Of a stretch of DNA of 64,000 nt, positions 59,762-63,610 are shown one piece after another. Where the stretch lies: positions 67,656 to 131,655 of the forward strand of contig CALYBC010000025.1 in NCBI GenBank assembly GCA_944393725.1. The letters are read 5' to 3'. The notes below the pieces were generated by a model. It was not told the DNA's origin, did not search any database, and worked only from the letters and a program-made list of their open reading frames with translations. Origin of the DNA: an uncultured Alphaproteobacteria bacterium (GTDB lineage Bacteria > Pseudomonadota > Alphaproteobacteria > RF32 > CAG-239). The position numbers and the translations under genes are program-made. Numbering within the stretch: the first letter of the stretch is position 1; every line of letters begins with the position of its first letter.

Positions 59762-59782
59762 GGTAAAAAAAGCACAAAATAT

Positions 59783-59808
59783 AAGCCCCGTCATAATTGG
59801 CGGGGCTT
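59783..59808. terminator. Terminator hairpin between dnaK and the convergent 1194-aa gene
   Basis: 8-bp GC-rich stem AAGCCCCG/CGGGGCTT with a 10-nt loop, followed by a T-rich stretch and preceded by an A run. Confidence 0.6.
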
Positions 59809-59824
59809 CTTCTGTTAATCCAGA

Positions 59825-62800
59825 CTATCTGGCGTTTGAGCTACTTTTCAAATCATAAGTGCCGCCATGTGGTTTATTTGCCTTTCCGCGAGGAAGAGGA
59901 GTTCTTGATGTATCACGTGCAGCAGTCAACTTTGCATGTTCGGCATTATTTTTACCTATTGACGCAATTTCGGTAAAATGACGCAGTGTCACATCTTTTG
60001 TTGCCAACGGCTGACCATCGTAAGACAAGTTTGTTTTCCAAACGGTTTCTCTGGTAGAATTTATAAACTCCATTCCCTTTTTGGTTTCTGCTGAACCTTT
60101 AGTATCCTCAAGCGGAGATGTAGCATAACCTACTTCTTTCTCAAATGAATCCCATCTTGTTTCAAGATACTTGCCGAAAGAGGATTCTGTATTTTCTGCT
60201 TTCCACTCGTTTTGTACTAAAGATTTGTAGCGGATACGCTCTGATTCGTTTGGCTTAATACCGTGGACTACCTTATACTCACGATCAATCATTTCACTTA
60301 TGGATGAATCTGTATACTCCGGCAAAGCCTTATGAACTTTGTGTTCAGGCAAAACTTTGGCCTCCTGATGTTCAGGCAAAGCCTTAGCTTCTTGATGCTC
60401 AGGTAGAGCCTTTAGTTCTTTCACAGGTTTGGGAGGATTTGGCGGAATAACAGGATCTTCGCGCTCATCCTTATTTTTGCGTTTGCCGTTAGCCCCCATA
60501 ATAACATTCAAAAATTTATTTTTTGTTGAGGTCCATACTTTATCAAATGTAACGGTAAACGGAATAAAGCTATGTTGTTCGGCTTTAGAAAACTGATCAA
60601 ATTTCTCATAATGAGCTTCTTCCGGAATATTAACAATTTCTTTTCCGGCTGCACCACCGGCATAGGTAGTAAATACGCTTCCTTTACCACTTTCGGCGTG
60701 CACCATCTCTCCGGCTTCGTTTACGGTCGCGTTACGAGGCAAGACCCCATCATGATGAACCGGAGCATGGTCAACATGTCCAACTTCATTGTTTGCCGAA
60801 ACCAGAGTATCAAGTTTAGCAATAGTTTCCATAACCTCAGGAGTGAGGTTTTTAGGAATTAAATTACCATTTTCATCAGTTATTGCCGCCACAGCTTCAA
60901 TTTCTTCGGAGCTAAATCCGTATTTGTTGCACCAGCCTTCACCAAACACTTTGTGATTTCCGTTCACTTCAACCGGAGTATTGCTGTTGTCAACATGGTT
61001 AAGGTTTGTATCGACCTCAGCATTGACCATCTGAGCTCCGCAATCACCGGCAATCAACAAAGCACGATGTACATCAACTGCTTGTTCAGGGTGTGCGGCA
61101 TTCCATTGCTCAATAGTACTCTGAGCCGCATCAACATTGCTTTCCAGCAAATCGGGAACATCTTTGGTCCATCTCTCCAAAATATCTTGAGCTTTTTCGG
61201 TAGCATTATCAAGATATCTGACCTCAGTTTTTGCAGGTTCGTCAATTATTTTTATGCCATTTGCGTCACTTGCATTGGTTTCTGAGCGAACAATACCGTC
61301 TTCGGCAAGACTTGCATCGTCCCTACCTAACAAGCTAACAGCTTCTTCATTAGTAACTGGTTCTTTTATAACTCCGTTTTCATTAAGTTGATCAGGAGTC
61401 ATGTTTTTATAATCATTTAACTCCTCGCCCGTAACCGCTGTTTTGGTATAACTTGCATCATCAGGATTATACTCATCGGCCCTGACGGGTCTGGTTCCGT
61501 GTTCACCCCACAAATCAAGCGATACATTATTCAGATGTTCGGATGCCAAGTTAACTCCGTAAGATAGCCCCATACCGGTTAATACGGCGGTTCCGGTAGA
61601 AAGTGATGAATTTGTGACAGATTTCAAAATAGCCTTACCCCATTTATCACCGGCTTTTCTGTTATTGCGAGCCCCTTTAATAACCGAAGTGGCAAAGCCA
61701 AAAGCCATCATACCGTAACGGACTGCTTTCTGCATGCCATATTCGGCAATCTTACCTCCGAATACAATTGCTGTTGTTGTTGCCGCGGTCATCAAAATCT
61801 CAGGAGATTTTTGCAATAGGAATTTACCAAAGAATTTTAATCCCTTTTCCTTTGATGCTTTTCTCTCTTCTATATATGATCTTGTTAATCTGTAAATAGC
61901 TTGAGTAGCATAAACACCGGCATAAATTTGTGAGCCCAACCCTGGCACTCCCAAAGCCAAACCGGCGGTATTACATCCGATTCGCAAAGCTTGGTTAAGA
62001 GCTTGAGCGCCCATGTTTCTAGCCATCATTTTGCCGAAAGTTCTGACAACCTCATAAGATTTGCCGAAACGAGCAATACAAGCTTTATCGATTTTGGCGA
62101 TTGGCCCGTACATTTTGCTCAAAACTGGAGCTGCACGATTTTTAAGATGAGCCTTTCCGGCCAAGCGATTCAAAAAGCTGACATGGTTGTTAACTGTTGC
62201 AGCTTGAAAAGCCGCCAACCCTTTATCGGAAATTGGCTCATTACTGTTTAGGGCTTTTCCTACAGCCTCTCTGCGTTGTTCATCGGTAGCATCTTCCGGC
62301 AAGTTGGCAAGGGCATCGGTTGATTTCAGAGTATTGATATAAGTTCCGGTAACCACTTGTAGCTGATTTTTTAATTCATCGACAAGGGCTTGCTTATCCT
62401 TACCATATGCAGCTACAGCCGCATTTCTGGCTGCCGTTGCTTTGATAGTTTCAATAAATATTTCTTTTTTCTTGTCAGCGTCGGGGTTTTCAAAATTCAA
62501 GCTCTGCAACCAAGTTCCCGTCTCGGCAAACCAAGTTTCATTTTGCTTTTTATCATTAATATCGATATTTTTAGCAATTTCCCAAGCATCATCAAAAGCT
62601 TCCTCAAGCTTTTTCTCGTCGCCCTCTTTTACATTGACTAAGCCATTTAGTCTGTCATAATTATCAATGGTCTCGTTCATGCGATTTCTGGCTGCGTTAA
62701 GCTTGTTAGCCAAATCCTGTCTTACATTTTCCGGCAAGCGAGAGAGGTTGTTTTCAATATAGTCAAACATCTCCATCGCGCCGTCATAAACATCGGCGAC

Positions 62801-63409
62801 ATTGGTTCCATCGACAATAATATCACCTAAAACATAGCCGTTAAGCTTGCTATACATAGCCTCCAAGAGAACCGCACTTTGTTCTTCAAGAGAAGCAAGC
62901 TCACCTTCTTTTCCGTCTTTTCCCTCAAGTCTCTTATCAATATCTTGGCTCATAACAACCAGCTGGTGCGGAGGCAGAACCTCGGCCAAATCTTTGGCTT
63001 TCTGTATCAGGGAAACATTGAATTTTGATAATTCTGAAGCATTAAGATTATCTTTTAATTCTTGAATTTTTTCTTCTTTTTCCTCAAGAGAAAGCTTGGT
63101 AAAGTTTTTTGGAAATTTATTACCCAAAACCTCTTTTAAGGCGGTAATTTCCATACCTTCGGACATTTTAAGGCTATCATATGTTGCTTCCAAAAAAATC
63201 GGAGCGGCACCCGCGTCAACATGACCATCTAACAGCTGTTTCCATTCGTCAGATGTATACCCGCCGGTATAAGATTGTGCCTTTTGTGACTTGGTAGTAT
63301 CGTCATTTTCCTGTCTATCTGCTGTGTTCGCATTTTCCGCATTTTTACTGGAAACGGACTGATTTCGATTTTTTTTCTTGTCATCTTCTTCATCTACGGT
63401 TACCGGCAT
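59825..63409 (-). CDS. Orphan 1194-aa protein inserted between dnaK and dnaJ (candidate membrane-targeted or secreted effector)
   Basis: Long uninterrupted ORF with a GGGAG RBS 7 nt before the ATG. Acidic/polar N-terminus with no signal peptide, a helical region, a central Gly/Ala-rich hydrophobic block (~residues 465-625), a His-rich globular C-half, KALPEHQEA tandem repeats, and a basic C-terminus. I recognise no family. Confidence 0.7.
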   Translation of the reverse strand: MPVTVDEEDDKKKNRNQSVSSKNAENANTADRQENDDTTKSQKAQSYTGGYTSDEWKQLLDGHVDAGAAPIFLEATYDSLKMSEGMEITALKEVLGNKFPKNFTKLSLEEKEEKIQELKDNLNASELSKFNVSLIQKAKDLAEVLPPHQLVVMSQDIDKRLEGKDGKEGELASLEEQSAVLLEAMYSKLNGYVLGDIIVDGTNVADVYDGAMEMFDYIENNLSRLPENVRQDLANKLNAARNRMNETIDNYDRLNGLVNVKEGDEKKLEEAFDDAWEIAKNIDINDKKQNETWFAETGTWLQSLNFENPDADKKKEIFIETIKATAARNAAVAAYGKDKQALVDELKNQLQVVTGTYINTLKSTDALANLPEDATDEQRREAVGKALNSNEPISDKGLAAFQAATVNNHVSFLNRLAGKAHLKNRAAPVLSKMYGPIAKIDKACIARFGKSYEVVRTFGKMMARNMGAQALNQALRIGCNTAGLALGVPGLGSQIYAGVYATQAIYRLTRSYIEERKASKEKGLKFFGKFLLQKSPEILMTAATTTAIVFGGKIAEYGMQKAVRYGMMAFGFATSVIKGARNNRKAGDKWGKAILKSVTNSSLSTGTAVLTGMGLSYGVNLASEHLNNVSLDLWGEHGTRPVRADEYNPDDASYTKTAVTGEELNDYKNMTPDQLNENGVIKEPVTNEEAVSLLGRDDASLAEDGIVRSETNASDANGIKIIDEPAKTEVRYLDNATEKAQDILERWTKDVPDLLESNVDAAQSTIEQWNAAHPEQAVDVHRALLIAGDCGAQMVNAEVDTNLNHVDNSNTPVEVNGNHKVFGEGWCNKYGFSSEEIEAVAAITDENGNLIPKNLTPEVMETIAKLDTLVSANNEVGHVDHAPVHHDGVLPRNATVNEAGEMVHAESGKGSVFTTYAGGAAGKEIVNIPEEAHYEKFDQFSKAEQHSFIPFTVTFDKVWTSTKNKFLNVIMGANGKRKNKDEREDPVIPPNPPKPVKELKALPEHQEAKALPEHQEAKVLPEHKVHKALPEYTDSSISEMIDREYKVVHGIKPNESERIRYKSLVQNEWKAENTESSFGKYLETRWDSFEKEVGYATSPLEDTKGSAETKKGMEFINSTRETVWKTNLSYDGQPLATKDVTLRHFTEIASIGKNNAEHAKLTAARDTSRTPLPRGKANKPHGGTYDLKSSSNAR
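60317..60424 (-). repeat. Four imperfect in-frame 27-bp tandem repeats
   Basis: Units start at 60317, 60344, 60371 and 60398 (ttcaggcaaagccttagcttcttgatg-like). They encode KALPEHQEA-KALPEHQEA-KVLPEHKVH-KALPEY. Confidence 0.85.
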
Positions 63410-63446
63410 GATCTTTCTCCCGAAGTAATTGCGTTCTTATAAGCAT

Positions 63447-63475
63447 ATATTGACACAAAATACAAATTTTGTCAA
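63447..63475 (-). promoter_or_regulatory. Sigma-70-like promoter of the 1194-aa gene within an imperfect palindrome
   Basis: The minus strand reads TTGACA-N17-CAATAT, ending ~38 nt upstream of the ATG. It is embedded in the inverted repeat TTGACA(CA)AAAT-ACAA-ATTTTGTCAA. Confidence 0.35.
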
Positions 63476-63550
63476 TTTTTTTATTAAACCCATTATAATA
63501 CCTATTTCTTAATATTTATTTATAATTATTTCAAAAAGTTGGCTAAAGTT

Positions 63551-63579
63551 CTTGCTTTTTTGCCTAAAGTTACCTAAAT
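63551..63579 (+). promoter_or_regulatory. Second sigma-32-like promoter, in front of dnaJ
   Basis: CTTG (63551-63554), an 18-nt spacer, then CCTAAAT (63573-63579). It has the same architecture and spacing as the dnaK promoter, with one mismatch to CYTATNT. It lies ~32 nt upstream of the dnaJ ATG. Confidence 0.4.
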
Positions 63580-63610
63580 AAGAAACAAAAGATAATAAAA
63601 GAGAACTGTC

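Follow-up and report, generated by a model that had tools for sequence, protein, structure and literature searches.

A member of a modular protein family of probable inner-membrane location encoded at an old insertion between dnaK and dnaJ in uncultured Alphaproteobacteria

Overview

The stretch analysed here (hereafter the window) comprises 64,000 nucleotides (nt) of contig CALYBC010000025.1 (positions 67,656–131,655, forward strand; GenBank assembly GCA_944393725.1), from an uncultured alphaproteobacterium of the CAG-239 lineage. Between dnaK and dnaJ it contains a single gene on the minus strand (59825–63409, one intact open reading frame, ORF) that encodes a protein of 1194 amino acids (aa), designated P0001. 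The most plausible explanation, to which we attach a probability of about 0.6, is that this gene is native, vertically inherited and under purifying selection, that it encodes an inner-membrane protein of an undescribed modular family, and that it occupies an old insertion between dnaK and dnaJ. The gene is not an orphan, nor did it arrive recently by horizontal transfer, and its entry seems to have left the heat-shock genes without a broken operon. The family delimited here includes more than 140 clusters at 50% identity, has no counterpart in Pfam, NCBIfam or the PDB, and combines a fixed modular plan with module exchange. Lineage-specific, fast-evolving envelope or exported proteins of this kind are candidates for how uncultured bacteria interact with their surroundings.

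Position of the gene and age of the insertion

The window represents an ordinary origin-proximal part of a core chromosome, with dnaA-dnaN-recF, gyrB, polA, a penicillin-binding protein (PBP), a Lon-like protease, accD and an autotransporter. In this setting, dnaK (57848–59761, plus strand, 637 aa; assigned from the ORF table and from the same gene in L006, which has HSP70 Pfam matches) is convergent with the 1194-aa gene at a distance of 63 nt. On the other side, dnaJ is divergent from it and runs past the window end (63611–64000, plus strand); the part present encodes a canonical J-domain with the HPD motif and a Gly/Phe-rich region, and the full gene, seen in L006, encodes 382 aa with DnaJ Pfam matches. 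The ORF table and the sequence confirmed the 3.85-kb gap (3849 nt) with one opposite-strand gene that the original prediction, made from the window sequence, had described.

The gene order dnaJ(<-), big gene(->), dnaK(<-) recurred in L002, L001, L003/L021 and L005, in which the big protein was 90%, 71%, 54% and 39% identical to P0001, respectively, and in L006/L007, in which an identical protein was found in other samples. The same insertion site is therefore shared by five species-level lineages (window, L001, L002, L003/L021 and L005), down to 39% protein identity, and three other metagenome assemblies, each independent, yielded a protein identical to P0001. In L004 (31% identity), the big gene was still divergent from dnaJ, with dnaK located elsewhere. 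Six outgroup contigs (L015–L020; DnaK 94.5% and DnaJ 74% identical) had the same upstream order as the window (accA-rmuC-HU-lapA-accD-phosphorylase-dnaK), only 179 nt separated dnaK from dnaJ, and nothing homologous to the big gene lay within 16 kb. This synteny shows that the gene was acquired once between dnaK and dnaJ by the ancestor of the sublineage, after the split from the outgroup and before the lineages radiated. Since the site is shared among these lineages and the outgroup is contiguous, the insertion is ancient and fixed rather than strain-specific. The comparison with related genomes therefore upheld the view that the gene was inserted into an ancestral dnaK-dnaJ order, and did not uphold a recent, strain-specific arrival, to which the shared site, the position next to dnaJ in L004 and a native base composition are all opposed. 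Relatives carried the same gene at the same place, as had been named among the outcomes that could refute the prediction, although with no housekeeping annotation.

The composition of the gene also resembled that of its surroundings. Its GC content was 0.418, compared with 0.405 ± 0.031 for the 38 other ORFs of the window, its GC content at third codon positions was 0.353 (0.388 ± 0.042), and its synonymous-codon log-likelihood corresponded to z = 0.02, so a foreign codon usage or GC content was not supported. No transposase or integrase adjoined the gene, the neighbours being housekeeping genes; no tRNA was found in the 64-kb window; and no flanking repeats surrounded the gene, the repeats of the window being short and at chance level. 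The absence of these marks had been predicted correctly. A recently acquired genomic island was accordingly rejected, given the native composition, the lack of mobility marks and an empty site found only in a distant outgroup (DnaJ 74%).

Two observations concern the vicinity of dnaJ. A protein of 301–302 aa that belongs to no Pfam family is encoded directly after dnaJ in every lineage with the big gene (66%–96% identity; L006 1035–1943 on the minus strand, just past the window end; L001 396–1304; L002 7665–8573; L004 5638–6543; L005 5640–6545), and an MliC-family gene takes its place in the outgroup L015. Its gene might have been gained together with the big gene or separately, in another event. 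In L004, genes for a Lon-like protease, a tetratricopeptide repeat protein, a 251-aa protein and a 470-aa protein abut those for the 301-aa protein, DnaJ and the big protein, whereas in the window ca. 11 kb (48184–59761, including dnaK) separates the Lon-like protease block (42035–48182) from the dnaJ/big-gene block. The comparison suggests a rearrangement, one breakpoint of which would lie exactly between the big gene and dnaK.

Selection and rate of evolution

Between the 1194-aa gene and its 90%-identical allele in L002, the ratio of nonsynonymous to synonymous substitution rates (dN/dS) was 0.10 overall and 0.05–0.2 per segment, which indicated that the gene is under purifying selection. 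For comparison, dnaK, accD and the adjacent phosphorylase-like gene had dN/dS values of 0.014–0.028.

One related locus, L003, contained a frameshift at ca. 4945–4950 that splits the big gene into ORFs of 207 aa and 1044 aa. The split gene was 98%–99% identical to that of P0010, and L021 and L022 carry the P0010 gene unbroken at this site. Either an assembly error or a strain-level pseudogene would account for the frameshift, which was taken as an isolated case since other samples have this allele intact.

Predicted transcription units around the insertion

The 1194-aa gene is preceded by a sigma-70-like promoter motif on the minus strand (63447–63475), with TTGACA at 63475–63470, a 17-nt spacer and CAATAT at 63452–63447, and by a ribosome-binding site (RBS), GGGAGAAAG (GGGAGA-type), ca. 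7 nt upstream of the ATG. Both elements had been predicted, and at motif level both are present. A consensus promoter scanner did not call the TTGACA-N17-CAATAT site, because CAATAT fits TATAAT at only three of six positions. The TTGACA −35 element was kept in five of six related loci, and the RBS was also conserved. An inverted repeat, TTGACA-N14-TGTCAA (63450–63475), overlaps this promoter, its minus-strand arm forming the −35 box, and recurred at aligned positions in L001, L002, L003 and L005. It might represent an operator or two back-to-back −35 elements.

At the other end, 16 nt past the stop codon, there is a terminator-like hairpin (59783–59808; 11 pairs, seven of them G-C), which lies between the two convergent stop codons and could serve both dnaK and the 1194-aa gene, as originally proposed. 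It was kept with compensatory changes across five loci.

The two chaperone genes each carry a putative promoter of the RpoH (sigma-32) type on the plus strand. The dnaK motif (CTTGCA-N16-CCTATAT, 57773–57801; also detected in L001, L002, L003, L005 and L015) fits the consensus CTTG(A/C)(A/C)-N15-16-CCTAT(A/C)T, and the dnaJ motif (CTTGCT-N16-CCTAAAT, 63551–63579; invariant CTTGC and CCTAAATAA columns in six loci) has one mismatch in the −10 element. A closely similar consensus, CTTGAA-N15-16-CCTATAT, has been reported for RpoH1 promoters of S. meliloti (PMC4843759). The pattern CTTGNN-N15-17-CCTAWAT occurred at exactly two sites when both strands of the window were scanned, 5′ of dnaK and 5′ of dnaJ, and at the same two places in L001–L005 and in the contiguous outgroup L015. 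In L015, the terminator hairpin was also still present 3′ of dnaK and the RpoH-type motif 5′ of dnaJ. We infer that dnaK and dnaJ were probably separate heat-shock units before the insertion, so that the space between them might have been a permissive landing site, as far as can be judged from the motifs. The insertion would have been tolerated since dnaK is closed by a predicted terminator and dnaJ is served by a separate putative promoter of the RpoH type, and no operon would be broken because each of the two genes has its own predicted heat-shock promoter. The notion of a split operon was therefore not sustained, these elements being present even where the two genes are contiguous. Compared with the canonical RpoH-dependent dnaK-dnaJ locus of Alphaproteobacteria, the window has both genes in the same orientation, each with a motif resembling the RpoH1 consensus, and the outgroup retains their contiguity; the window differs in the 3.6-kb opposite-strand gene in between and in that dnaJ appears to be its own transcription unit, with a terminator after dnaK and a separate promoter.

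Protein family and modular architecture

P0001 had been considered an orphan, but relatives proved to be numerous. A word-indexed search retrieved 23 clusters of unnamed proteins (31%–100% identity, 950–1340 aa) without Pfam domains, and a word-indexed profile search added no members beyond those of the single-sequence search. When 1.84 billion representatives were searched exhaustively with a HMMER profile, 142 proteins matched at E < 1e-3, 56 of them below 1e-30, and a further search seeded with distant members yielded ca. 100 clusters. The few named clusters consisted of hypothetical proteins from metagenome-assembled genomes (MAGs) labelled Alphaproteobacteria bacterium, Rickettsiales bacterium or bacterium. 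The family was found only in metagenome-assembled, uncultured Alphaproteobacteria, with members of ca. 1100–2200 aa.

In an alignment of relatives (A1), the conserved core extended from about residue 50 to about residue 975. Most relatives have an N-terminal extension of ca. 300 aa that ends in a Pro-rich linker; P0001 and P0002 lack it and instead have a C-terminal extension of ca. 220 aa. These two proteins were 90%–97% identical except in residues 681–935, where identity fell to 10%–25%. The differing segment corresponds to module A in P0001 and to module B in P0002, and the two modules show no similarity to each other. Module B of P0002 was 57% identical to that of P0022, although the backbone and flank were only 47% identical. 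In a census of 204 full-length superfamily members, the N-core and central block were present in 203, module A in 174, module B in 22 and the C-extension in 32. Modules A and B never occurred together and were internal rather than terminal, and all four combinations of A or B with or without the C-extension were found. The census therefore indicated a fixed-order modular system of N-core, block, A or B, and optional C-extension, and the sequence comparisons provide clear evidence that modules have been exchanged between lineages by recombination. P0001 itself consists of N-core, block, module A and C-extension.

An AlphaFold2 (AF2) model of the full-length protein from 17 sequences had a mean predicted local distance difference test score (pLDDT) of 62 and a predicted template modelling score (pTM) of 0.38, and the parts of the protein differed widely in confidence. 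The polar, acidic N-terminus (residues 1–50; 63260–63409; all coordinates in this paragraph are on the minus strand unless noted) is poorly conserved in A1 and had a pLDDT of ca. 25. It is followed by the N-core of ca. 390 aa (residues 51–440; 62090–63259), which has invariant columns in A1 with the conserved motifs GYTSDEW, LPPHQL, NVADVYDGAMEMF and YD..NGL; its all-helical domain (residues 90–440) was predicted confidently (pLDDT 70–94). The next ca. 200 aa (residues 441–640; 61490–62089) form a basic, Gly/Ala/Ser/Thr-rich block, modelled as four long helices (447–627). Beyond the block, alpha/beta domains were predicted confidently at residues 630–800 and 820–950, and a separate model of residues 628–980 had a pLDDT of 77. 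This region starts with an acidic alpha/beta segment (residues 641–740; 61190–61489; domain model pLDDT 82–92) with the conserved motif WGEHGTR...ADEYN, and continues with module A, an alpha/beta domain (residues 741–935; 60605–61189; model pLDDT up to 97) delimited by identity profiles and the census. Its invariant W, D, H, E, D and G positions lie in WT..P, DVDT..NHV, GNHKVFG, NEVG, HxDG and TYA; in P0002, P0022 and others, the unrelated module B takes its place. A conserved junction, EQHSFIPFTVTFD....IMGANGK (residues 936–975; 60485–60604), follows either module in A1. A Lys/Pro-rich spacer comes next (residues 976–1030; 60320–60484), with the 9-aa tandem repeat ALPEHQEAK encoded by 3.7 copies of a 27-nt unit (60321–60420, located by a repeat scan). 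The optional C-extension, with a basic tail (residues 1031–1194; 59828–60319), is missing from most close relatives and was modelled as partly helical (helices within 1034–1093, pLDDT 72–83). The tandem repeat, the His-rich stretch VGHVDHAPVHHDG, the basic C-terminal tail and the lack of an N-terminal signal peptide were all as originally described.

Proposed membrane anchor and topology

The case for a membrane location comes mainly from the sister subfamily, whose TM region is homologous to the block at residues 441–640 (TM, transmembrane). There, Kyte-Doolittle hydropathy reached 2.0–2.3 and the summed apparent free energy (dG) was ca. 0, equal to control TM helices. The TM controls were the ABC transporter and PBP1 of the window, and the soluble controls, DnaK, GyrB, PolA and Lon, were without such segments. 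A column profile of 92 sequences revealed two hydrophobic stretches of ca. 40 residues, each with a central Gly/Pro turn, and one stretch of ca. 25 residues. Lys/Arg fractions were 0.17–0.33 before and between these stretches, and the sequence was acidic after the last one. In P0001, the net charge was +16 in the block and −13 and −21 in the following domains. The charge distribution of the profile fits the positive-inside rule, and this pattern would imply a protein of five spans whose N-core faces the cytoplasm and whose C-terminal modules lie past the inner membrane.

In this model, the central block would act as a membrane anchor of two helical hairpins and one helix, between a cytoplasmic N-core and acidic, exchangeable modules on the far side of the inner membrane. 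A large helical domain in the cytoplasm would thereby be connected with the periplasm or outer envelope, with the swappable modules, on their Pro/Lys-rich spacers, as a variable specificity end. Its role could be tethering, signalling or transport. Overall, the family is undescribed, modular and fast-evolving, and its members are probably inner-membrane proteins.

Several points weigh against this reading. The block of P0001 is weakly hydrophobic, with Kyte-Doolittle peaks of 1.0–1.2 over 19 residues, and none of its 19-residue segments reaches a crude TM threshold that all of the control TM helices exceed. The 'central hydrophobic block' of the original prediction thus exists as a block of long helices, but its hydrophobicity was overstated. 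TM-grade hydrophobicity was marginal in P0016, P0021, P0022 and P0023, and was not reached in P0001 or P0002. Because the P0001 stretches fall below the threshold, membrane integration of its subfamily is predicted from homology alone; the proposed topology derives solely from the positive-inside rule, and AF2 confidence is low in the block (pLDDT 45–65). The promoters and terminator are assigned at motif level, and no known domain, fold or partner gene points to a biochemical function. The big protein also diverges rapidly: between the window and L005 it is 39% identical, compared with 94% for DnaK, 83% for DnaJ and 72% for the 302-aa neighbour. Such fast evolution and module swapping would also be expected of secreted or contact proteins.

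Searches for function and gene neighbourhood

The statement that the product matches no recognised family held for curated families and solved structures alike. P0001 had no match in NCBIfam or Pfam (the latter at E ≤ 1), and Pfam returned none for 17 close members (E ≤ 0.1) or 34 distant members (E ≤ 0.001). Searches of PDB sequences with the single sequence and two profiles were negative, as were PADLOC and, for the whole window, Rfam. Foldseek comparison of the full model with the PDB gave only helical-bundle noise (best match vinculin/alpha-catenin, E 0.07), and the model of residues 628–980 gave nothing below E 0.6.

Across ca. 12 loci, no secretion-system, chaperone or immunity gene adjoined the big gene. 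Type II secretion system/pilus-type genes were observed 3–5 kb away in L012, and one family member adjoins DUF374-lpxK-lpxC. The sister subfamily has a stable locus of its own, frr-uppS-cdsA-rseP-bamA ... Na/Ca exchanger, gene, signal-peptide protein of 315–324 aa, comM. The gene for this signal-peptide protein is always co-oriented and lies 50–110 nt downstream of the sister gene (L009 12298–13272, L010 12347–13315, L013 10236–11189 and L014 10521–11468), and its product, a possible partner of the sister subfamily in the envelope, has a borderline match to the Opacity family of outer-membrane porins (E 0.001, under the gathering score). No counterpart of this porin-like gene adjoins the window gene.

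In layout, the protein resembles several known types. Like TonB/TolA-type trans-envelope proteins, it appears to combine an N-in, C-out anchor with an extended acidic region and Pro/Lys/Glu-rich repeat spacers (PPNPPKPVKELKALPEHQEAK...) before a C-terminal domain. It differs from them in showing no sequence or fold similarity, in having ca. five predicted helices rather than one TM helix, and in the lack of ExbBD/TolQR partner genes nearby; TonB/TolA-type proteins are also without the ca. 400-aa cytoplasmic helical domain of the 1194-aa protein. The extended VirB6/TrbL-like proteins of Rickettsiales type IV secretion systems (T4SS) are likewise large alphaproteobacterial proteins (at least ca. 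1000 aa) in which big fast-evolving hydrophilic extensions, sometimes with repeats, flank a polytopic membrane block at the centre. However, no TrbL/VirB6 Pfam match was obtained in the 17 close and 34 distant members, and the gene was never in a T4SS cluster in the loci examined. The resemblance to these two types, as to the tape-measure proteins and polymorphic toxins considered below, is in layout only, and none of the tests for membership in them gave a positive result.

Alternative explanations

Instead of remaining in the bacterial inner membrane, the protein might be, in a refined form of the original suggestion, a secreted or translocated effector, or another membrane-inserting protein, whose lowered hairpin hydrophobicity lets it escape that membrane, leave the cell (e.g., through a type IV or type I system with genes at another locus) and become inserted in a target membrane, with module A or B as the active end. 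Exported transmembrane effectors of type III secretion systems and T4SS tend to have only moderately hydrophobic TM segments, and the hydrophobicity of the P0001 block is far below that of the sister subfamily. Fast evolution, cassette exchange, the tandem repeat and Pro-rich spacers fit this explanation, as do, less specifically, the missing signal peptide and the basic C-terminal tails across the family. We nevertheless regard it as unlikely. The gene occurs singly and in conserved synteny at core loci, where it has been inherited vertically, dN/dS of 0.05–0.2 leaves no positively selected segment between close relatives, and no secretion-system, chaperone or immunity gene adjoined it in the ca. 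12 loci, nor was a cognate secretion system encoded in the 64 kb available of this genome. No eukaryote-like or toxin domain was detected in P0001 or in the 17 close and 34 distant members, the TM helices of the sister subfamily are ordinary and their loops follow the positive-inside rule, and the labels of the source organisms, which go no further than uncultured (Alpha)proteobacteria, give no indication of an intracellular lifestyle. A more specific version, in which the dnaJ-linked subfamily evolved from a polytopic inner-membrane ancestor into an exported, membrane-inserting protein through lowered hairpin hydrophobicity, with modules A and B acting on host or competitor cells, is more doubtful still; if true, it would represent a new class of effector or pore-former from uncultured Alphaproteobacteria.

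The remaining alternatives appear less probable again. Polymorphic toxins and contact-dependent competition proteins, in which a conserved N-terminal part delivers interchangeable C-terminal toxic modules, share with the family a conserved N-terminal body and alternative, unrelated modules exchanged by recombination. The mutual exclusion of A and B at one position and the optional additional C-terminal modules recall such systems; however, the 204 members contain only two alternative modules and no hypervariable tip, and the variable module is followed by a conserved junction and further modules. The next gene downstream is the convergent dnaK, in L001, L002, L003 and L005 as in the window, rather than a small immunity-like gene, and neither an RHS, LXG, haemagglutinin, PAAR or other delivery domain, nor a known toxin domain, nor a PADLOC match was found, which makes this explanation improbable. 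Descent from a phage tape-measure or internal-virion (ejection) protein, later domesticated, is harder to credit. Such proteins are also long and helical, with Gly/Ala-rich hydrophobic segments and a C-terminal globular, enzymatic domain. Nothing significant was retrieved when the full model was compared with BFVD (best E 0.067, TM-score 0.07); the top matches were tape-measure, lysozyme and internal-virion proteins (E 0.07–1), all with TM-scores of ca. 0.07 and E > 0.05. Matches in PHROGs were weak, the one to a tail spike (E 8.6e-4 over 100 residues) being absent or inconsistent in other members. The distant homologue P0074 (L011 9416–11652, from a MAG labelled Rickettsiales bacterium) lies 2–4 kb upstream of T7-type scaffold and capsid-like genes, but this is the sole phage-like context among ca. 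12 loci; the window and the 11 other loci have no phage genes, and their positions are stable and chromosomal. Finally, a decaying, non-functional ORF that happens to stay open, for which only the frameshifted gene in L003 speaks, is scarcely credible in view of a dN/dS of 0.10, reading frames of 1086–1343 aa intact in all 23 close clusters, the intact P0010 allele at the same site in other samples (28 member sequences), and the conserved −35 element and RBS.

Other genes of the window

The window also encodes a 1240-aa autotransporter (7431–11153, minus strand) that combines an AIDA stalk repeat with a beta-barrel at the C-terminus, which indicates that the organism displays large surface proteins by a known route. 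Three further ORFs, at 33172–35550 (minus strand, 792 aa), 46773–48182 (plus strand, 469 aa) and 51049–52284 (minus strand, 411 aa), were without a Pfam match at E ≤ 1e-5, and the 90% cluster of the 792-aa product held just three sequences.

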